The notes under the pieces: model-generated | The model's input: the letters and a program-made list of their open reading frames with translations, nothing else | What the model was told of the DNA's origin: nothing | Databases searched by the model: none | Position numbers and translations under genes: made by a program | Shown: piece after piece, positions 26,104 through 54,730 of the stretch | Numbering within the stretch: position 1 is the first letter of the stretch | Layout: the number at the start of each line of letters is the position of its first letter | NCBI GenBank assembly: GCA_023898625.1 | Contig: CP060231.1 | Span: forward strand, 148,258 to 212,257 | Reading direction: 5' to 3' | From: Candidatus Nomurabacteria bacterium | GTDB lineage: Bacteria; Patescibacteriota; Saccharimonadia; Saccharimonadales; JAGQNJ01 | Length of the DNA stretch: 64,000 nt

Positions 26104-26124
26104 AACCACCCTTTAAGGGTGGTT
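26104..26124 (-). terminator. Rho-independent terminator of the 23S-5S unit (also follows ridA on the other strand)
   Basis: AACCACCC / GGGTGGTT stem with a TTTAA loop. On the minus strand it is followed by TTTTTCTTTTT. Confidence 0.7.
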
Positions 26125-26134
26125 ATTTCTATAA

Positions 26135-26251
26135 TTCGGCACCGTGCTATTTTCCCAGGGCTTGATGACCCAAGTATTGTAACCGCAGAGAGGCTTAACT
26201 GCTGTGTTCGGCATGGGAACAGGTGTTTCCCTCTCGCTATGGGCACCGACC
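26135..26251 (-). rRNA. rrf: 5S ribosomal RNA
   Basis: Reverse complement reads TCGGTGCCCATAGCGAGAGGGAAACACCTGTTCCCATGCCGAACACAGCAGTTAAGCCTCTCTGCGGT...GCACGGTGCCGAA. It carries the CCCATGCCGAACACAG and GTTAAGC 5S blocks, and the terminal helix pairs. Confidence 0.9.
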
Positions 26252-26756
26252 TGGTATTTTGTACCGTTTATATCTGTTTCCAGCAAAGCTAAAACTCTGA
26301 TATAAGCTCTGAGTAAATCGCTTCATCAGTAACGCTCGTCACTCGCTTCTCGCTACTTCCTTGCGCTTCATCTCAGTACAAAAATCCAGGACTGATGTCC
26401 AAATTACATTTTGCATGATAGATTGTTAACAAACACGGATATGTACACGTTGTGTGATACACACCAATAACTAGCCAATTGTCCATATTTTCTAAAGTCA
26501 CACCTCTGTTAAATTACTTTAACATTGATTGTGGCTTTAGTTCATAAAAAGTCGATGGATCTATTAGTACGCTTTGGCTGAATGTATTGCTACACGTACA
26601 CCTTGCGCCTATCAACCTGATCGTCTTTCAGGGATCTCCATAGGGAAATGCAATCTTGGGATTAGTTTCGCGCTTAATATGCTTTCAGCGCTTATCTAGA
26701 CCGCACTTAGCTACCCAGCAATGCCTGTAGGTCAGACAACTGGTACACCAGCGGTG

Positions 26757-26789
<33 letters not shown>

Positions 26790-26825
26790 TTCCCTCACAT
26801 TTCCTATTGTCCACATCGGATATAA

Positions 26826-26859
<34 letters not shown>

Positions 26860-26887
26860 ACGTACCTCTTTAACCGGCGAACAGCCG

Positions 26888-26918
<31 letters not shown>

Positions 26919-26977
26919 AGATGAGCCGACATCGAGGTGCCAAACAGCGCCGTCTATGTGAACTATTGGGCGCTATA

Positions 26978-27010
<33 letters not shown>

Positions 27011-27688
27011 TGCGTTGCCGATTCCACACTCATATACATAATGTATGGACAACGGGTCACTTACTCCCACTTTCGTGCCTGCTTGGCTTGTAGGCCTCAC
27101 AGTCAAGCTGGCTTATGCGTATGCACTATCACTACGATTTCCATCCGTAGCTAGCCAACCTTTGAACGCCTCCGCTACTCTTTAGGAGGCAACCGCCCCA
27201 GTTAAACTACCCACCAGACACTGTCCTCGAACCGGATAACGGTCCAAGTAAGAACAAAGTAACAACAAGGGTGGTATTTCACTGAAGACTCCACCATCGC
27301 TAGCGCGTTGGCTTCATAGTCTCCCACCTATGCTACACATGTTGTCACCCAGCTCAATGTCAAGCTGTAGTAAAGCTCCACGGGGTCTTTTCGTCCTGAT
27401 GCGGACAGACGGCATCTTTACCGCCAATGCACTTTCACCGAGTCCCTTCTTGAGACAGTACCCATATCATTACTCCATTCGTGCGGGTCAGAACTTACCT
27501 GACAAGGAATTTCGCTACCTTAGGACGGTTATAGTTACCGCCGCCGTTCACTGGGGCTTCAGTTCGCACCGTGAAGCGCTCCCCTTAACCTTCCAGCACC
27601 GGGCAGGAGTCAGCCCCTATACATCCACTTTCGTGTTAGCAGAGACCTGTGTTTTTGGTAAACAGTTGCTTGGGTTCTTTCGCTGCGG

Positions 27689-27835
27689 CCCCGTCACCAT
27701 ACTTACAAGTCGGTTAACGAAGCACAAGCTTCCAGAATTAATTTGTTTTGTCTCGATTTATCTCGATAGAATCATATATTTTAACTCTATTAATCTTGAA
27801 AACTTGGCTAGTCACTTATAAACATAGTGACGGGG
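27689..27835 (-). other. 23S insertion/expansion at the helix-63-equivalent site (about 147 nt, AT-rich)
   Basis: Bounded by CCCCGTCACCATA / TATGGTGACGGGG-type pairing (rc: GCCCCGTCACTATG...TATGGTGACGGGGC). Located between the conserved CCGTAACTT...AGG and CAACTGTTTACCAAAAACACAG blocks, where E. coli has about 50 nt. Confidence 0.8.
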
Positions 27836-28848
27836 CAGACCTTATCCCTAAGTTACGGTCGCTGTATTGCCGAGTTCCTTGACGAAGAATCACTCGTACA
27901 CCTTGGTCTTCTCGACCTGAGCACCTGTGTCGGTTTGCGGTACGGGCGGCCATAGACACACGCTTGGAAGCTTTTCTAGTCAGTACTTTCACAAGAATCA
28001 AGCCCGTAAGGGCCCTTTCATTCCCACTTATTAAGGTGGTTAGACGGGTATAACCATGAACCCGCTCTTACTAATATACCGCGCACTCCAAGCAATCTAT
28101 AACCGGTACAGGAATATTAACCTGTTGTCCATCGCCTACGCTACGCGCCTCGGCTTAGGCCCGACTAACCCTGGGACGATTACCGTGGCCCAGGAAACCT
28201 CGCTCTTTCGGTGGGCAGGATTCTCACCTGCCTTATGGTTACTCATTCCAGCATTCTCACTTGATACCACTCCACCAGACCTCGCAGTCTGACTTCAGCG
28301 CTGATATCAACGCTCCTCTACCACTGTACAAAGTACAGTCCACAGCTTCGGTAATACACTTAGCCCCGTTACATTTTCCGCGCGGGATCTCTTGACGAGT
28401 GAGCTGTTACGCACTCTTTAAATGAATGGCTGCTTCTAAGCCAACATCCTCGTTGTCCAAGAAATCCTACCTCGTTTCCCACTTAGTGTATATTTAGGGA
28501 CCTTAGCTGGTGGTCTGGGCTGTTTCCCTTTTGAGCGTGGAGCTTAGCCCCCACGTTCTAACTGCCGTAGTTCCACATTCCGTATTCGTAGTTTGTCAAG
28601 GGTGGGTAATCTTGCGACCCCCAGTCCGAAACAGAGCTCTACCCCAGAATGCTACCGTACGACGCTAGCCCTAAAGCTATTTCGAGGAGAACCAGCTATC
28701 TCCAGGTTCGATTGGCATTTCACCGCTAACCACAGGTCATCCGGGCGTGTTGCAACTCGCTACGGTTCGGTCCTCCACGCAGTTTTACCTGCGCTTCAAC
28801 CTGCCCATGGTTAGGTCACCTGGTTTCGGGTCTACTCCTATATACTCT

Positions 28849-29010
28849 AGGCATATCCTCGCTGGACAAAATATGTCTGTGAGCACAGATCACAAGGTTT
28901 TGACTTTGTAAAAGTTTTTTAACGTATTGACTTATACGTTTCAAAAATTTTACTTTGTCAAAATCAGTGTTATGCGTTCACAGGCTGTTTTGCTCAGTGA
29001 GGATATGCCT
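28849..29010 (-). other. 23S intervening-sequence-like insertion at the helix-25 site (about 160 nt)
   Basis: Inserted between GAATAGGGCG and AGTAGACCCGAAACC. Closed by AGGCATATCCTC...GAGGATATGCCT. An internal long hairpin is GACTTTGTAAAAGTTTTTT...AAAAATTTTACTTTGTC. Confidence 0.8.
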
Positions 29011-29439
29011 TCGCCCTATTCAGGCTCGCTTTCACTACGCCTCCGCCAAATGGCTTAAGCTCGCATATAAGAATAACTCGCTGGATCGTTCTACAAAAAG
29101 CACGCCATCACCCCGAAGGGCTCTGACTCCTTGTACGCACATAATTTCAGGTTCTATTTCACTCCCCTCCCGGGGTTCTTTTCGCCTTTCCCTCACGGTA
29201 CTTGTTCACTATCGATCATAAGATATATTTAGCCTTGGAACGTGGTCGTCCCAGATTCAAACAGGGTTTCTCGTGTCCCGTTCTACTCGACAATAATAAA
29301 TATAAGGTTGCGAATACTTAACATACCGGGCTATCACCGTCTTTGGCTAGTCTTTCCAGACTATTCTGCTCGCTTCGCAATTTCTGACCTTATGCAAGTT
29401 CGTGGTAGCACTTGCTTCCACTACGGATTTCCTAAATAA

Positions 29440-29640
29440 TTTAGGCTCTCCGTAGTAGTTGTTTACTATGTCACAACCCCTGTAATACATTCGTCTACCA
29501 ACTTATCGGATATAAGACAAAACCTACGGTTTTTTCTTATCGCGCCAGGCAAAAAATGCGATTTTTGCTTGGGCTTATCTTATTCCCTATAACAGGACCA
29601 TAAGCTTAATCCCATATCCGAAGTATTAAAGGTTTGGGCT
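29440..29640 (-). other. 23S domain I insertion (about 170 nt extra)
   Basis: Lies between GTAGTGGCGAGCGAAACTGGAATAGCCCAAACC and TCTGGAAAGACTAGCCAAAGACGGTGATAGCCCGGTA (rc). E. coli has about 80 nt here, this gene about 250. Confidence 0.75.
29513..29578 (-). repeat. Two-hairpin module, copy inside the 23S domain I insertion
   Basis: Plus strand TAAGACAAAACCTACGGTTTTTTCTTATCGCGCCAGGCAAAAAATGCGATTTTTGCTTGGGCTTATC aligns with 34232-34295. Confidence 0.7.
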
Positions 29641-30122
29641 ATTCCAGTTTCGCTCGCCACTACTCCCAGAATCATTGGTTATTTTCTCTTCCTCGAGGTA
29701 CTAAGATGTTTCAGTTCCCCCGGTTCCCTCTTCTTACCCTATGTGTTCAGATAAGAGTTACTAGGCATGACCCCAGTAGGGTTTCCCCATTCGGAAATCT
29801 TCGGTTCAAAGCTTGTTTGACAGCTCCCCGAAGCTTATCGCAGTCTACTACGTCCTTCATCGGTATCTTATGTCAAGGCATCCATTGTGTGCGCTTGAGT
29901 AACTTTTTATGAATATATGTATGCATTTGGCTAGTTATTGGTTAGTACCAATAAATGCCGTGCTTGTCTTTACATCTATCTCTAAATCTCTAAAATCTTG
30001 ATTGTTAAGTTTCTAAACTCACGCTAATCATACCCATACAATAATGATTATGATCGTTTCTTGAGTTTACATTTGAAGTCGATTCCTCTAGACCTCTGAT
30101 CTAAACTCAAGATAGCTATACA

Positions 30123-30151
30123 AGTTTATCAACTAAAACAGAGGTAGTCAA
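30123..30151 (-). promoter_or_regulatory. Sigma-70-like promoter candidate for the 23S-5S unit
   Basis: Minus strand TTGACT (30151-30146), 17-nt spacer, TAAACT (30128-30123), about 180 nt upstream of the 23S processing stem. Confidence 0.4.
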
Positions 30152-30220
30152 CCATATTTTAATGTAATCATTACCACACTATAACTACTGTTAATTACTT
30201 TTCTAGCACGACTCCTGGAA

Positions 30221-31378
30221 TTATTGCTCCCAACAAGCCCAAAGTATTTTTTCTGTAACTGCATAGTTTTCAGGCTTCTTCATTGCCATTCTACCCTTAC
30301 TCTTAGCATCCGGACAAGCACCAGTTGCATTACCTCTGTATTCTACCTGACCAACCCACAATCCTTTGTTCGTGGCTGGATTCAAATCATCGCATTCACC
30401 GTATTGCTGACATTCTTCATTAAGAATCCCGTCTGGCACACACAGACCTGGTTTACAATAGACAATACCAGTAGGTTCTGTCACCTGTTGGTCTGTTAAT
30501 TCCACGCCATTCTTGCTAATGGCAGTTAACCCTCTTTGGTGAGCTTGATAATAATACTCACGATACAGTCGTAATGAATGAGCTTCAGTAATATTAAAGG
30601 TTTTATCGTTTCCGTAACTATTAATCTGATCGCCCTCAACACCATCACAGCCAATTTTTTTTGCTACATCAAGACGAGCCCACATAATCGGTGCCCAATA
30701 TTGCCAAGAATTTTCTTTAATATCCATCCAATACTCACCCTCAAAAGTACCGCCGGCTGAATCTTCTGATGTTCCACCAATAACATCTACATTTGCATAT
30801 GATGCTGGCCCATTGTATGGAATACTCCCCCGGCTATTATTTCCTGAGCCCCACTTTCCAGGAAATAGCGAAGCATCTGGCTCATATGTCTCATAAGCCC
30901 CTATATCCATATAACAAATAACCTTTTTTCCAGATGACTTAAGAGCTGTAAATGCATCTGCATTCTTGCCTTTTGGCCAAGTTACTGTTCTTGTCTCTCC
31001 ATTAGCCCAAGTTACCGTTTGGGTAGTATTGCCTGGGATTGCATCAGTAAGATCAATATCCCACATATCGAAGCGATTAAGATTAGCTGCATCTACGGTA
31101 ATACCACCTTCAAGAACCCACTGCCAGCGGGTATTTTGAGCTGGTTTCCACCAAGAGCTTTGAGATGCTTGTCCAAATTTTATAGCTTTTCCGCCAGAAG
31201 CAGACGAATCTGCAATTACTAATTTACTGTCAGCCCCTTTTTCTGCTTCAATTTCAATCGAATATGTTCCAGCTTTAGCGACTAAAATGGCAATAAATCC
31301 AATTATGGCAATGAATAATATTACAAAAATCTTCTTATTTTCTATTAATTTTCTAAGGCTAATTTTAACTTTTTTCAT
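30221..31378 (-). CDS. Secreted/membrane-anchored glycoside hydrolase family 114 (endo-alpha-1,4-polygalactosaminidase-like)
   Basis: 385-aa ORF with N-terminal TM helix. GH114 blocks RWQWVL, MWDIDL, KKVICYMDIGAYETYEPD, GEYWMDIK and GCDGVEGDQINSY. Confidence 0.78.
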   Translation of the reverse strand: MKKVKISLRKLIENKKIFVILFIAIIGFIAILVAKAGTYSIEIEAEKGADSKLVIADSSASGGKAIKFGQASQSSWWKPAQNTRWQWVLEGGITVDAANLNRFDMWDIDLTDAIPGNTTQTVTWANGETRTVTWPKGKNADAFTALKSSGKKVICYMDIGAYETYEPDASLFPGKWGSGNNSRGSIPYNGPASYANVDVIGGTSEDSAGGTFEGEYWMDIKENSWQYWAPIMWARLDVAKKIGCDGVEGDQINSYGNDKTFNITEAHSLRLYREYYYQAHQRGLTAISKNGVELTDQQVTEPTGIVYCKPGLCVPDGILNEECQQYGECDDLNPATNKGLWVGQVEYRGNATGACPDAKSKGRMAMKKPENYAVTEKILWACWEQ

Positions 31379-31505
31379 AATCTCTATGACTAGCTTTATT
31401 ACCGAAATTTATTTATCGTATAATAATATAGTATCACGCTCAAGCTAAAATAGTCACTACTATTGTTTTAGTGGTCAAATTGATGTAAAATTACTCGAGT
31501 AATTT

Positions 31506-31582
31506 GGGGCGTTAGCTCAGTTGGCTAGAGCACCTGCTTTGCAAGCAGGGGGTCCGGGGTTCGAGTCCCCGACGCTCCACCA
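31506..31582 (+). tRNA. tRNA-Ala (anticodon UGC), CCA encoded
   Basis: GGGGCGTTAGCTCAGTTGGCTAGAGCACCTGCTTTGCAAGCAGGGGGTCCGGGGTTCGAGTCCCCGACGCTCCACCA. Cloverleaf folds, with the G3:U70 Ala identity pair. Confidence 0.95.
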
Positions 31583-31601
31583 AATTACTATTTATGATTT
31601 A

Positions 31602-31678
31602 GGGCGATTAGCTCAGCTGGTTAGAGCGCGTCACTGATAATGACGAGGTCGGAGGTTCAAGTCCCTCATCGCCCACCA
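31602..31678 (+). tRNA. tRNA-Ile (anticodon GAU), CCA encoded
   Basis: GGGCGATTAGCTCAGCTGGTTAGAGCGCGTCACTGATAATGACGAGGTCGGAGGTTCAAGTCCCTCATCGCCCACCA. Cloverleaf folds with one A-C mismatch in the T stem. Confidence 0.92.
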
Positions 31679-31687
31679 TTTAAAGAA

Positions 31688-31708
31688 GCCACCCTAGGGT
31701 GGTTTTTT
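31688..31708 (+). terminator. Rho-independent terminator after tRNA-Ile
   Basis: GCCACC-CTAG-GGTGGT hairpin followed by TTTTTT. Confidence 0.7.
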
Positions 31709-31710
31709 AA

Positions 31711-31862
31711 ATGGTCGGTGCTGTGGCTTGAATATTCGACACTTGAGGTCGGAGGGGAGAACTGCCTGTGGCAGTTTGGACGGCAATCTTCTCTTGAAAA
31801 CTTGTTTTCAAAGATGAAGTTGTGGGGTCGCCAGAGGTGACCGAGTCCCTCATCGCCCACCA
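31711..31862 (+). ncRNA. tRNA-Ile-derived pseudo-tRNA carrying a conserved ~95-nt three-hairpin module (copy 1)
   Basis: GAGGTCGGAGG (identical to the tRNA-Ile variable/T-stem region), then the module, then GTCCCTCATCGCCCACCA (identical to the tRNA-Ile 3' end). The module aligns with the reverse complement of 54569-54700. A plus-strand terminator follows at 31885-31908. Confidence 0.45.
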
Positions 31863-31884
31863 TCAAATGGATTTTTTAAGAATT

Positions 31885-31908
31885 GTCGCTTTCACGAGCG
31901 ATTTTTTT
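31885..31908 (+). terminator. Rho-independent terminator downstream of the tRNA-like element
   Basis: GTCGCT-TTCACG-AGCGAT hairpin followed by TTTTTTT. Confidence 0.6.
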
Positions 31909-31947
31909 CTTTTGAATTTAGAAGTAGCCTGATCGGGTCACCTAGAC

Positions 31948-33045
31948 TTACAGCCCAAAGCATTCCATTGACTGTGCCAAATGGGTTTTGCCAGTTTCAA
32001 TTTTCTCACGCATAAAGTCGGTAGGTTCCCAAGAATAACGACGCAAACGCAGTGTCATTTTTGACACAACATAGCGCAAGCGCAGTAACTCAAACTTGTC
32101 ATCAAAGTCGTTAGACTTTTGGACAACCGAAAAATAACCGTCCAAGAAACCTTTTAGACGCTCAGGTTCAAAAAAGGTACTCCAACAAGCAATGTCACTC
32201 TCTGGTATTCCGCCAACACACTCGTCCCAATCCAAAATACCCGTAATACCCTGCCCATCAGTCAATAAGTTCCAGTCAGCAAAATCATTGTGTACCAAAA
32301 TCGCTTCGTTCGAGTCTAGTAAAGGATTGCTATCAAATAATTTTGCTATTGCTTCGGCTTGTTGCTCGGTCAATATGCCGTATTGCTTCAATACATCAAT
32401 ATTAAATGGCAAACCTGCGCGGACGGCTTCGCCAAAAGTCTGGTGTAAACCAACCAATTCGCCATTTTTGGCTTTTTCATTATCAAATGCACCAAAACCA
32501 CTAACTTTTATTTGATGTAGTCGTGCCATCTCCTTGCCAATTTCTGGCAATAGTTTGGCCTCGTCGTCAGGATGTGTTTCCAACCATTTTTTAATTGCGT
32601 ACCCAGGCAATTTATCTATCACTTGAAAAGCAAAATCATCTCCGCCTTCATAATCGTGAATAGCGAGCGTGTCATAACTAGGCGAACCTGCTTCTTTGGC
32701 TTTTCGTGCGGCGACCGCTTCGGCATGGAAGTAGCCGTTTTTGACACCTCTAGGGTGGCAACGGATCACTACTTCTTTGCCAGTCGCCAAGCGACCAACT
32801 CGCACAGAATTTACATTGCCCAGATTTGTTTGTGCATCTAGGTCTAGTGGTTCAATATCGGTCAAACCGTCACGCCCGAGCACTCCATTTACTTTATTGA
32901 GCAGTTCATCATCTGTAAAATATCGATGACGGTCTGCCCAGATATGTCCAGCCTGTTCAGGCTCAATAGCTCGGTCAGTCTGCCAGTAAAAGACATCGTG
33001 CCTGTCGGCAATTTGGGCGTTTATTTTATCCATATCAAGATTCAT
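31948..33045 (-). CDS. Aminoglycoside/choline-kinase-type phosphotransferase (APH family) protein
   Basis: 365-aa ORF. The catalytic loop LVHNDFADWNLL and GILDWDE are the Brenner / DxD motifs of APH-like kinases. GC looks higher than neighbouring genes. Confidence 0.75.
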   Translation of the reverse strand: MNLDMDKINAQIADRHDVFYWQTDRAIEPEQAGHIWADRHRYFTDDELLNKVNGVLGRDGLTDIEPLDLDAQTNLGNVNSVRVGRLATGKEVVIRCHPRGVKNGYFHAEAVAARKAKEAGSPSYDTLAIHDYEGGDDFAFQVIDKLPGYAIKKWLETHPDDEAKLLPEIGKEMARLHQIKVSGFGAFDNEKAKNGELVGLHQTFGEAVRAGLPFNIDVLKQYGILTEQQAEAIAKLFDSNPLLDSNEAILVHNDFADWNLLTDGQGITGILDWDECVGGIPESDIACWSTFFEPERLKGFLDGYFSVVQKSNDFDDKFELLRLRYVVSKMTLRLRRYSWEPTDFMREKIETGKTHLAQSMECFGL

Positions 33046-33054
33046 ATTTACAAC

Positions 33055-33855
33055 TCATTTCAAAGTAAACCCGCCGTCAACAGCAAGAATTTGCCCAGTT
33101 ATAAAAGAAGCATCGTCTGATAGTAGAAAAGCAACAGCGGAAGCTATTTCTTCGGGCTTTCCCATGCGTTTAATGATAGAAAGGTCTGTTGTCCAGCTAG
33201 GGTCTTCGCCTGTGCTTTTGGTCAGGGGAGTATCGACCAAACCGGGGGCAACCGCATTGACACGAACAAGCGGCTCATTGTACTTGCGAGCAAACGATTT
33301 TGTAAGTGAGATAATACCCGCTTTGGTAGACGAGTAAATTACTCCGTAAGGCTCGCCAATTATGCCGTCAACTGATGTTAGCGCAACAATAGCACCGTCT
33401 TTAGATGTTTCTTTGATTAGCGCACCAAGTAGCTTTAAGGTGCTGAAAGTACCTTTCAGATTTACATCTATAGTGCGACTTATATTTTCGTCTGTAATGT
33501 CGTCAATTCCAGCGGGGAGTGGTAGTACCCCCGCATTTGCTACAAGCAAATCAAGATGACCAAACTCATCTTTTATATGTTGCCTCACTCGTTCCAGCTC
33601 AGCTTTATTGGAGATGTCGGCAGCAACGAAGCGGACTCTTGCTAAGTCATTAAATTGCTCCAAAACCGATTTATCTGATTCACTTGGCGAATTCAGAATT
33701 ACGGTAGCACCGTCATTAAAAAGTCTGTGTGCTATCGCTAAGCCGATGCCTTGTGTTGAACCTGTTACTAACGCTACTTTATTTAGAAAACTCACATCCC
33801 AATTATAACACATTTCAACCCTGTTATAATTCACAAACATAATCATGAGAGCCAT
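33055..33855 (-). CDS. Short-chain dehydrogenase/reductase (FabG-like SDR)
   Basis: VALVTGSTQGIGLAIA (TGxxxGxG), NAG and the YSSTKAG catalytic motif. The true start is probably the internal Met near 33813. Confidence 0.85.
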   Translation of the reverse strand: MALMIMFVNYNRVEMCYNWDVSFLNKVALVTGSTQGIGLAIAHRLFNDGATVILNSPSESDKSVLEQFNDLARVRFVAADISNKAELERVRQHIKDEFGHLDLLVANAGVLPLPAGIDDITDENISRTIDVNLKGTFSTLKLLGALIKETSKDGAIVALTSVDGIIGEPYGVIYSSTKAGIISLTKSFARKYNEPLVRVNAVAPGLVDTPLTKSTGEDPSWTTDLSIIKRMGKPEEIASAVAFLLSDDASFITGQILAVDGGFTLK

Positions 33856-34231
33856 CTACAAAATAATCAACCTCAGAAAACCATCTATAACTAAAAGGAA
33901 TTCGGCGAAAAAGGATCTAAAAGATACAAAAAAGACTTATTCAGAAAGGCTTGTGTTTTTTTAGTTATTCTACATATTGAATTTGTACAACGTTATAAAA
34001 TCTACCAAATCCTCATAATAATCTGTCTGAATACCTTTAACTTTAAGAATACTTGATTTTAAAAAAGAGCCCTCTCGCAAATGGGCTCTTTTTAGTTATT
34101 TAAAAACTGGGTAGTGCAATTATCAACGCAAGATCTGGTTAGCACTGCGGATCGTCCTGCTTGCAGGAAAATACATTGTCAGTACTGATCACAATGTATC
34201 GATATCGACCTAGCTATCACGCTTCGCTAAT

Positions 34232-34295
34232 GAAACAAACCTACGGTTTTTCTCATCACGCCGGCAAAATGGTTCACATTTTGTCGGGTTGCTCT
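34232..34295 (-). repeat. Two-hairpin module, copy in the 16S 3' trailer
   Basis: Plus strand GAAACAAACCTACGGTTTTTCTCATCACGCCGGCAAAATGGTTCACATTTTGTCGGGTTGCTC aligns with 29513-29578. Both hairpins are retained with compensatory changes. Confidence 0.7.
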
Positions 34296-34338
34296 TTCCC
34301 CTTTTAAAAGGAACAAAACGGATGCTAGAAACTCCCTA

Positions 34339-35837
<1,499 letters not shown>

Positions 35838-35925
35838 AATTTGAAGCAAATCACTGACTTAAAATGAACCTAAAATAAACGCTGACGGCGACGCCGTACT
35901 ACGATTACCATGCCTTCGACATGAG

Positions 35926-35963
35926 GTTCATCCTGAGCCAGGATCAAACTCTCCAAAAAAATT
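35926..35963 (-). repeat. Perfect 38-nt duplicate of the 16S 5' terminus, located in the leader
   Basis: GTTCATCCTGAGCCAGGATCAAACTCTCCAAAAAAATT occurs at 35804-35841 (the true 5' end) and again at 35926-35963. Confidence 0.95.
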
Positions 35964-36171
35964 CATAAATTAATATGAGAATTGACCTGATACTGTTTTA
36001 TTAAAGTAAAACATTCAGTCAAAATGAACTGACGTTGATAATACAATCCACGAGATTAAAAATCTATGAATTATATCGTGTCCCCATAAGGGGACAAAAA
36101 TTGCACTACTCAACTTTTAAAGTTCGTTTTTTAAAGACACTATAATACAAGAATCCTCAAAAGCTCGTATA

Positions 36172-36200
36172 ATCTTATCCGTTAAATGAATCTATGTCAA
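36172..36200 (-). promoter_or_regulatory. Sigma-70-like promoter candidate for the 16S gene
   Basis: Minus strand TTGACA (36200-36195), 17-nt spacer, TAAGAT (36177-36172), upstream of the 16S processing stem. Confidence 0.45.
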
Positions 36201-51230: not shown

Positions 51231-51232
51231 GT

Positions 51233-51672
51233 ATGCCAGCCTATCTATAAGCCGGGTTCTGTTATTACTAGTCATCTATCTAGTCTACAAATTGCTTTGC
51301 AGATCAAGCGGGTTTCACGCGCATATCTAGCAGGATACTAATGTACAAAACGCACAATATGATACGCTACCTTGCAACAGACAGGGTTTACCTTTTGGTT
51401 ATGTCGCCATAATCAACTGTAGGCTCTTACCCTACTCTTTTCAACTTTACCTCGTATCCATTACTGGTATTCTACTCAATATATAACCGATATCAGCAAA
51501 GGATACGAGGCCGTCTTGTTTCTGTGGCACTTTCCCTAGAGTTACCTCTGGTTGCTGTTAGCAACTGCCCTTCCTTATGTTGCCCGGACTTTCCTCTCTG
51601 TACTTATGACCATCAAGCTAATTCCATCATTAATAGCCTTAAGTACAGAGCGACTAGTCGATAACCTGGCAG
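51233..51672 (-). ncRNA. rnpB: RNase P RNA (bacterial type A)
   Basis: Reverse complement contains CAGAGAGGAAAGTCCGGGCAACA (P4 5' strand), GGGAAAGTGCCACAGAAA, GGGTAAGAGCC and ACAGAACCCGGCTTATAGATAGGCTGGC (P4 3' strand plus P1 pairing with the 5' GCCAGGTTATC). Confidence 0.9.
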
Positions 51673-54568: not shown

Positions 54569-54717
54569 TGGTCAGGGTAAGAGGACTTGAACCTGCGACC
54601 TCACGGTCACCTCCGGCGACCCCGAAACTTCTGCCTTGACAGCATAGCTGTCAGGTGAAGATTTCCTTGCAAACTGCCACTGGCAGTTCTCACCCCAGCC
54701 GTAAAAGGGGTCCCTAT
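54569..54717 (-). ncRNA. Degenerate tRNA-Pro-like gene carrying the ~95-nt three-hairpin module in its anticodon loop (copy 2)
   Basis: Reverse complement: TAGGGACCCCTTTTACGGCTGGGG-[module]-CCGTGAGGTCGCAGGTTCAAGTCCTCTTACCCTGACCA. The last 26 nt are identical to tRNA-Pro. No D-arm. There is no terminator between it and tRNA-Pro. Confidence 0.45.
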
Positions 54718-54730
54718 GAAAATTTATAAA

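Follow-up and report, generated by a model that had tools for sequence, protein, structure and literature searches.

How is a ribosomal RNA (rRNA) locus to be understood in which the 16S gene stands apart from those for 23S and 5S, with protein genes and a pair of transfer RNA (tRNA) genes of the opposite strand between them? The question arises from a stretch of 64,000 nucleotides (contig CP060231.1, positions 148,258 to 212,257), which is referred to here as the window, and for which the original prediction had described the separation as a visible intermediate state in the break-up of a canonical operon. Judging from sequence comparison, it is likely that the window comprises the only rRNA locus of a Saccharibacteria genome and that this locus is stably split, being composed of three adjacent and self-contained transcription units, which would govern 16S, the tRNA pair and 23S-5S, respectively. 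The genes concerned were placed by Rfam covariance models and, for the tRNAs, by both ARAGORN and Rfam:

34340-35837, minus strand: 16S rRNA gene (RF00177, 1486 bits, full length)
26543-29909, minus strand: 23S rRNA gene (RF02541, 2514 bits)
26134-26250, minus strand: 5S rRNA gene (RF00001, 88 bits)
31506-31582, plus strand: tRNA-Ala(UGC)
31602-31678, plus strand: tRNA-Ile(GAU)

These placements reproduce the predicted rRNA and tRNA coordinates to within 1 nt and yield a gap of 4,430 bp (between 34340 and 29909), in agreement with the 4.4 kb claimed from the outset. All rRNAs are encoded on the minus strand, and the retained spacer tRNAs, as predicted, lie on the opposite strand and are transcribed in the order Ala then Ile according to ARAGORN. 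Seen from the 16S side, genes for an SDR and an APH-like kinase come first in the gap; after them stand a tRNA-like element, tRNA-Ile and tRNA-Ala, encoded on the plus strand, and finally a GH114 gene. Pfam supports all three protein genes that had been proposed for the former spacer. The gyrA gene is located directly upstream of 16S, and the homologues of the encoded GyrA all stem from metagenome-assembled genomes (MAGs) of Saccharibacteria, which bears out the assignment to this group in the original prediction. At 4,430 bp the gap lies beyond the distance by which Brewer et al. define unlinked rRNA genes, and with plus-strand tRNAs between minus-strand rRNAs the locus falls into class D of Lui et al. 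2021, 'unlinked by distance'. A canonical rrn operon has all genes on one strand in the order 16S-Ile-Ala-23S-5S and a spacer of at most 1.5 kb devoid of protein genes; the window departs from this scheme by its opposite-strand tRNAs, transcribed Ala then Ile, and by the length of its spacer with three Pfam-supported genes. It conforms to the scheme in the long flanking stems around 16S and 23S, predicted to be processing stems of the RNase III type, and in a 23S gene that adjoins 5S across a 292-nt spacer and is followed by a terminator hairpin at 26104-26124.

The signals attributed to the three units are the following, given for 16S, the tRNA pair and 23S-5S in turn:

36172-36200, minus strand: 16S promoter candidate TTGACA-17-TAAGAT, a motif conserved in relatives
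36026-36121, minus strand: 5' strand of the 16S flanking stem, split by a 61-nt lineage-specific insertion
34099-34135, minus strand: 3' strand of the 16S flanking stem, pairing with the 5' strand
34055-34093, minus strand: intrinsic-terminator-like hairpin (AAAAAGAGCCC...GGGCTCTTTTTT), immediately downstream of the 3' stem arm of 16S
31463-31491, plus strand: promoter candidate of the tRNA pair, TTGTTT-17-TAAAAT, ending 14 nt before tRNA-Ala
31683-31709, plus strand: terminator hairpin of the tRNA pair (CCACCCTAGGGTGG then T6)
30123-30151, minus strand: 23S promoter candidate TTGACT-17-TAAACT, a motif conserved in relatives
29997-30112, minus strand: 23S leader, with a conserved hairpin (30059-30112) and then a boxA-like element, GAAACTTAACAATCAAG, at 29997-30013
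29924-29950, minus strand: 5' strand of the 23S flanking stem, pairing with 26455-26481
26455-26481, minus strand: 3' strand of the 23S flanking stem, within the 23S-5S spacer
26104-26124, both strands: bidirectional terminator hairpin after 5S (hairpin scan)

A single-sequence promoter scan of the window returned 21 sites against 19.4 expected, which is not above chance. Since such scans for promoters and terminators are uninformative on their own, they were replaced by positional conservation across loci. The comparison set comprises 80 Saccharibacteria loci around GyrA homologues (78-95% identity), in nearly all of which the order gyrA then 16S is kept, and counts of tRNA states cover the 21 loci, the window included, that extend far enough to contain the tRNAs. 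Upstream of 16S, the motif TTGACN-N16-18-TAnnnT was present in 23 of 23 loci as compared to 4% of control segments, and alignments of the flanks revealed an invariant TTGACA-like -35 element, variable spacers and a preserved TAnnnT pattern at -10. For 23S, the motif TTGAC(C/T)-(A/G)CCTCTGTT...-TAnnnT occurs 206-326 nt before the gene in 10 of 13 loci, among them four linked ones (controls, 2.5%), and in the aligned leaders of the relatives a conserved hairpin is followed by the boxA-like CTTAACAAT, so named for its presumed likeness to boxA of E. coli (CUUUAACAA). Within 70 nt upstream of the first tRNA, TTGnnn-N16-18-TAnnnT was found in 19 of 21 loci (4% of controls), where it ends 11-41 nt before the gene; moreover, promoter and leader of the Ala>Ile pair (TAnAAT then ..CGAGTAATTT) are common to its same-strand and inverted versions.

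Signals of the terminator type show a similar regularity. A GC-rich hairpin with a T-run follows 16S in 19 of 22 loci (controls, 33%), its stem sequence differing between genomes; it stands directly after the stem arm in 18 loci and further downstream in L068, and all four linked loci possess it. That its position is kept in 18 loci with changing stem sequence argues for selection on the hairpin itself. About 11 of 21 loci, among them the window and the linked loci L018 and L039, have a terminator after the second tRNA as well, and one follows 5S in all five loci that reach this point. The 16S stem of the window, of about 30 bp, is formed by the arms 36099-36121 / 34099-34121 plus 36026-36042 / 34119-34135; in a covariation test across 21 loci, with arms taken by hand from alignments, duplexes between own partners reached -36.5 kcal/mol versus -30.1 kcal/mol for non-own partners (permutation p<1e-4). 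The 23S stem spans 27 nt with 85% complementarity and an extended duplex of -46 kcal/mol. Hence, the claim that 16S and 23S-5S each have a promoter candidate and a stem of their own holds, both motifs being conserved in relatives and both stems being present. As evidence of splitting, the separate processing stems carry no weight, because ordinary operons also have them; what they do show is why a split is tolerated.

The comparison with related Saccharibacteria rRNA loci, which had been proposed as a check, also bears on the question whether the window represents an intermediate. ARAGORN resolved three states of the tRNA pair:

Ile>Ala, rRNA strand (canonical): 6 of 21 loci
Ala>Ile, rRNA strand: 6 of 21 loci
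Ala>Ile, opposite strand (window type): 9 of 21 loci, including the window

A fourth state, the inverted canonical pair, was not seen among the 21 loci. The distance between 16S and 23S amounts to 846-1000 bp in four loci and ranges from 1.8 to more than 8 kb in the remaining 17, which are thus unlinked by the 1.5-kb criterion. In neighbour-joining trees, sister loci of different state are joined with 16S/GyrA bootstraps of 100/100 (L068/L079), 100/85 (L023/L018) and 100/95 (L024/L039), and therefore the state has changed several times. Split and inverted pair recur among the relatives, the latter in eight other Saccharibacteria species, so that the notion of a visible intermediate has to be abandoned: the layout of the window is one more case of an arrangement already known in the group and no exceptional intermediate. 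The accompanying argument about inversion survives in part. One inversion of a canonical Ile>Ala pair indeed cannot yield the observed layout, but one inversion of the same-strand Ala>Ile pair, which six relatives possess, can.

From the conserved motifs it may be proposed that they act as promoters and terminators and that 16S, tRNAs and 23S-5S are transcribed separately. The first unit would lead from its promoter through 16S within its flanking stem of about 30 bp to an intrinsic terminator, and the second from its promoter through the tRNA-Ala/tRNA-Ile pair to a terminator, predicted in roughly half of the loci, the window among them. The third unit would comprise a promoter, a leader hairpin with the boxA-like element, stem-enclosed 23S, 5S and a terminator. 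As each unit would bring its own start and usually its own stop signals, the junctions between units should tolerate change, and since the units have their own promoters, and 16S its terminator, even when adjacent, the separate units would not have been created by insertion. In the window, the SDR and kinase genes would have been inserted at the 16S/tRNA junction and the GH114 gene at the tRNA/23S junction, and the whole tRNA unit, promoter and terminator included, would have been inverted, presumably from the Ala>Ile pair seen on the rRNA strand of relatives. The Ala>Ile order itself may have arisen earlier, probably via tandem duplication and loss. What appears to be litter of duplication and decay is found in the form of partial tRNA copies, a duplicated 3' flank of tRNA-Ala, minihelices and a decayed tRNA-Ile copy in the window.

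The protein genes of the spacer were examined as to their origin:

30221-31378, minus strand: GH114 glycoside hydrolase gene (Pfam Glyco_hydro_114, E 1e-40), with an N-terminal membrane or signal segment
31948-33045, minus strand: gene for an APH-family phosphotransferase of the aminoglycoside/choline-kinase fold (Pfam APH, E 5e-18)
33055-33855, minus strand: SDR gene (Pfam adh_short_C2, E 3e-58), whose true start probably lies a few codons downstream

The original prediction had regarded these genes as inserted cargo; a foreign origin does not fit the findings for the kinase. Its family comprises more than 100 homologue clusters at 65-88% identity from sources named Saccharibacteria, located in unrelated and variable neighbourhoods, and being typical of Saccharibacteria it marks the spacer cargo as ordinary flexible-genome content of the phylum; in addition, the spacer genes do not deviate in GC content from their surroundings. 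A tblastn search of 80 related loci found no copies of SDR, APH or GH114 in other spacers, so that a conserved spacer gene set was no longer considered. SDR and APH do not form a conserved pair either, the SDR beside the closest kinase homologue (L123) being only 33% identical, and the window kinase has no detectable relation to a choline-kinase-like open reading frame (ORF) in the spacer of L027 (E 0.05). In the closest relative, L001 (95% GyrA identity), a HAD hydrolase gene and an AIR-synthase-like gene take the place of SDR and APH. The spacer genes differ in every genome compared, other spacers containing a GNAT protein, a GH10 protein, an FAD oxidase, a polysaccharide-lyase/GSDH fusion, a PadR regulator, an S51 peptidase and giant ORFs; accessory genes turn over at the unit junctions. 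Pfam searches of the spacers of the window and 20 relatives revealed no integrase, transposase or homing endonuclease.

Two groups of spacer genes recur beyond the window. Four genomes of differing tRNA states (L024 14071-17491, L042 14927-17667, L079 17958-21479, L080 14897-18206) share a trio of genes (about 680, 195 and 170-207 aa) that immediately precedes the 23S promoter and is encoded on the other strand than the rRNAs; L042 lacks the third gene, no member of the trio scores above the Pfam threshold, and the third has a sub-threshold match to Glucodextran_B. Homologous giant ORFs of 1742-2180 aa directly follow the tRNA pair in L016 (14083-20625), L028 (14332-19695) and L059 (14499-19727), and the one that was scanned, in L028, has no Pfam match.

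The rRNA genes display several peculiarities of their own. A 38-nt duplicate of the 16S 5' end is located inside the leader at 35926-35963 (minus strand); it repeats 35804-35841 at 100%, corresponds to the ~34 nt at the start of 16S together with 4 nt before it, and is offset by exactly 122 nt upstream. The ~84 nt between both copies hold a stretch (35875-35890) complementary to 16S positions 29-44 (35794-35809), and a similar duplicate exists in at least three other genomes (L035, L053, L059). The 23S gene exceeds the bacterial model by about 440 nt owing to three hairpin insertions, deduced from blastn gaps relative to relatives and from hairpins. They lie on the minus strand at about 29508-29627, 28838-29010 and 27698-27797 (23S positions ~283-402, 900-1072 and 2113-2212) and look like intervening sequences or expansion segments, the first two being absent from all relatives examined. 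Extra sequence is also carried by the class A RNase P RNA at 51232-51669 (minus strand, 248 bits), which measures 438 nt versus a model of 367 positions.

Within the region of the tRNA pair, partial tRNA copies were found in the window and in L031, L035, L068 and L079. The 5' end of tRNA-Ala or tRNA-Ile (positions 1-19 or 1-20) recurs as an exact copy of 19-20 nt in L031 (13690-13709), L035 (16095-16113) and L079 (16604-16622), about 100-125 nt upstream of the intact gene and in tRNA pairs whose inter-tRNA spacers are unusually long, and in L079 the 3' flank of tRNA-Ala is duplicated. A tRNA-Ala 'minihelix' of 34-35 nt (GGGGGCGC-hairpin-GCGTCTCCACCA) sits between tRNA-Ala and tRNA-Ile in L035 (16115-16148, minus strand), L068 (16126-16160, minus strand) and L079 (16467-16501, plus strand), and none is present in the window. 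The G3:U70 pair and the CCA end are retained in these minihelices, which might have been left by the decay of a tandem duplicate of tRNA-Ala or might be small functional RNAs. Upstream of tRNA-Ala, the window moreover contains a degenerate inverted copy of the 23S promoter region (30125-30148 versus 31456-31479; ACTACyWyTGTTTTAGTkG, 24 nt, 75%), so that a weak inverted repeat flanks GH114.

The decayed tRNA-Ile copy of the window forms a tRNA-like element:

31710-31863, plus strand: tRNA-like element, a decayed copy of tRNA-Ile in which a 94-nt core of three hairpins (31753-31845) takes the place of the T-loop
31885-31909, plus strand: terminator-like hairpin after the tRNA-like element (terminator scan)

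The element closes with 20 nt that reproduce the 3' end of tRNA-Ile exactly and lie 184 nt downstream of it, and the core of the element follows the consensus GGGUGAGA-[nnnGCC AGU GGCnnn]-UUGCAAGG-[long hairpin]-CGGG-[hairpin]. A second copy of the core follows tRNA-Pro in the window (about 54570-54720, minus strand, core 54602-54695) and a third follows tRNA-Ile in L079 (16835-16970). In 1.09 Mb of Saccharibacteria gyrA-rRNA loci only these three seed copies were detected. A pattern search retrieved 34 metagenome contigs (L089-L122) and no viral contig, and a covariance model gave 39 metagenomic matches of 69-102 bits. In this family 97% of the pairs are formed and 25 of 33 pairs are compensatory, shuffled and slid controls being far lower. 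Nearly every copy adjoins a tRNA gene on the same strand, with many specificities represented, and there are two layouts: either the core stands after an intact tRNA with its terminator and before a copy of the 3' end of that tRNA, or it is inside a 5' partial tRNA copy just upstream of the promoter of the intact gene. The insertion points, at about positions 17, 25, 37, 46 and 55, correspond to tRNA loops. Six divergent genomes carry the core at the orthologous tRNA-Pro locus, and in L096, a canonical linked Saccharibacteria rRNA locus, it follows tRNA-Ala. Except for synteny around tRNA-Pro, no recurrent protein was found among the neighbours, nor any transposase or integrase. Rfam 15 gave no match to the core at the gathering threshold in the window and no credible one at E<=10 in 31480-31960, and a literature search returned nothing relevant.

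Comparable elements are the Rickettsia palindromic elements and miniature inverted-repeat transposable elements, the att sites of tRNA-targeted islands and the non-canonical tRNA introns of archaea. Like these, the tRNA-like element is short, repeated, rich in hairpins and situated within RNA genes, flanked by copies of tRNA 3' ends and inserted at tRNA loops. Unlike them, it is accompanied by neither transposase nor integrase, combines strong conservation of sequence and structure, and lacks an Rfam match. Since the host tRNA copies that bear the core are partial and stand beside an intact copy, the core is no functional intron; it could be a miniature mobile element or a functional RNA, and it may be linked to the reshuffling of the tRNA pair. 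The 94-nt core element is the most unusual item of the locus and appears to be previously undescribed.

Against three separate units, several other explanations have to be weighed, of which the most basic is a chimeric assembly, in which the false joining of 16S and 23S-5S to unrelated DNA would have obscured a normal operon as the true state of the locus. The rRNA genes are classic points of breakage and mis-joining in short-read metagenome assemblies, and most related contigs do end inside 16S. The exact protein of the window kinase is nonetheless present on 11 public contigs, among which L081, of 11.5 kb and from another sample and strain, is 99.15% identical to and colinear with window positions 39858-28338, a span that reaches from gyrA via 16S, SDR, APH, the tRNAs and GH114 to a point 1.57 kb into 23S. 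The 16S-SDR and APH-tRNA junctions recur, at 99.7-100% identity, on seven shorter contigs from other runs and samples, eight other species share the inverted tRNA layout, and the conserved 16S trailer and terminator as well as the conserved 23S promoter and leader run unbroken into the spacer genes. The split is therefore genuine, as had been supposed; the probability of a chimera is negligible, and on the contig sequences it can be regarded as essentially excluded. Another alternative is a single operon. Antiterminated transcription would proceed from the 16S promoter through SDR, APH and GH114 into 23S-5S, internal promoters would be auxiliary and the rRNAs co-regulated. All three protein genes lie on the rRNA strand, the 23S leader includes a boxA-like element, and in rRNA operons of E. 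coli internal terminator-like hairpins are overridden. Such read-through, however, would have to traverse two highly expressed tRNA genes in antisense direction, together with their palindromic terminator hairpin; the sole clear boxA-like element comes after the 23S promoter and none is in the 16S leader; the conserved position of the 16S terminator in 18 loci, with changing stem sequence, and relatives' gaps of more than 8 kb with opposite-strand genes argue in the same direction. We regard this explanation as unlikely.

The exact 20-nt repeat of the tRNA-Ile 3' end brings up a further alternative, a recent genomic island borne by an integrase that targets this end, with the tRNA-like element as a leftover att site. 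The 3' ends of tRNAs are classic targets of islands, and it is precisely from the tRNA-Ile 3' end onwards that the window differs from L001. The direct repeat, however, bounds only 164 bp, excluding the SDR-APH block; no integrase, excisionase or transposase was found in or beside the window spacer or in the spacers of 20 relatives; the same core occurs in partial copies of many tRNAs at varied positions, which misfits a single att site; and neither the GC content of the spacer genes nor the kinase, a typical Saccharibacteria gene, stands out. The locus thus shows neither of the marks of a tRNA-targeted island, an integrase and 3'-end repeats that bound the inserted genes, and we consider this origin quite improbable. 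A programmed switch, in which a site-specific recombinase flips the tRNA pair, would account for three orientation and order states that are scattered over the tree and differ between well-supported sisters, and the weak inverted repeat linking the 23S and tRNA promoters (24 nt, 75%) might serve it. This 24-nt match is the only inverted repeat found that could drive a flip, and against the switch there is neither a recombinase gene nearby, in the window or in the spacers of relatives, nor a conserved inverted repeat around the pair, so that the hallmarks of a site-specific invertible segment, a recombinase and inverted repeats at both ends, are missing. Strain-level contigs, moreover, all have one orientation, and flanking genes differ between the states, which indicates rare evolutionary rearrangements rather than switching; such a device is very improbable. 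A more far-reaching reading sees the locus as a hot spot of recombination and gene capture made of three insulated units, in which the tRNA pair would be repeatedly reordered and flipped, seeded by partial tRNA duplications linked to the 94-nt element, possibly a new tRNA-associated mobile element or structured RNA. To this we would accord a small chance.

The proposal of a stably split locus of three self-contained units is itself exposed to several objections. Promoters and terminators are deduced from conserved motifs only, the strict 23S promoter motif is absent in 3 of 13 loci, and the terminator detector has a background rate of 33%, for which reason the terminator argument rests on position and changing stem sequences. 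Antitermination of rRNA, suggested by the boxA-like element, could read through hairpins, and since SDR, APH and GH114 are encoded on the same strand as the rRNAs, transcription from the 16S promoter may to some extent read through. The comparison set consists of short-read MAG contigs picked by GyrA similarity and is biased accordingly, rRNA regions of MAGs are prone to assembly error, and the trees are simple neighbour-joining trees of two markers.

The practical value of the main finding is modest, and the 94-nt element may merit separate study. Methods based on long amplicons from 16S through the internal transcribed spacer to 23S will miss or mis-size Saccharibacteria, and the linking of 16S to 23S in Saccharibacteria bins cannot presume adjacency. 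The easy tolerance of unlinking finds an explanation in promoters that flank each unit and a terminator after 16S even where the genes are adjacent. As sites of accessory-gene turnover, the unit junctions lend themselves to strain typing in genomes that are very small and otherwise syntenic.

In kind, the arrangement has precedents. Unlinked rRNA genes are common in the Candidate Phyla Radiation (CPR)/Patescibacteria (10.1101/705046; PMC8172020), and the classes of Lui et al. 2021 include tRNAs and protein genes between 16S and 23S as well as intervening genes of the opposite strand, their two Saccharimonadia genomes being operonic (PMC8172020). The window shares with these CPR cases a 16S gene more than 1.5-2 kb from 23S-5S and intervening tRNA and protein genes, some on the opposite strand. 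In contrast to the operonic Saccharimonadia, 17 of 21 Saccharibacteria loci were unlinked here, and whereas many published CPR cases are hundreds of kb apart, the separation in the window is short-range with spacer tRNAs and the 16S-to-23S order kept. The cultured Saccharibacteria isolate Nanosynbacter lyticus TM7x has its 16S and 23S genes separated by pyrD and a hypothetical gene, and the non-contiguous rRNA operon gives a 16S-23S amplicon of 7 kb (PMC12424978, a 2025 preprint); the window likewise has protein genes at this place, but other ones. Since CPR unlinking and the spacer genes of TM7x are already published, the layout of the window is known in kind. What the sequences examined here add is an unlinked majority in the Saccharibacteria sample, a three-state tRNA pair, and a proposed insulation by promoters and a 16S terminator even in linked loci.

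Split rRNA genes are also established in reduced or slow-growing bacteria, such as Rickettsia, Helicobacter, Buchnera, Wolbachia, Thermus and Borrelia (PMC8172020; 10.1101/705046). The window agrees with splits of the Rickettsia, Helicobacter and Buchnera type in a 16S gene apart from retained 23S-5S, in a small genome and in one or few rRNA copies; those splits, however, are usually long-range with loss of the spacer tRNAs, whereas the window locus stays within 10 kb and its state varies between close relatives. With the canonical rrn operon of E. coli or B. subtilis it has in common the genes and their positional order along the rRNA strand (16S, Ile, Ala, 23S, 5S), a long stem around each large rRNA, a boxA-like element before 23S and the linkage of 23S and 5S. 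In contrast to that operon, its tRNAs occupy the other strand with promoter and terminator candidates of their own, a terminator candidate follows 16S, a conserved promoter motif precedes 23S, and three protein genes reside in the spacer, a constellation of sequence features that makes co-transcription of its rRNA genes unlikely.

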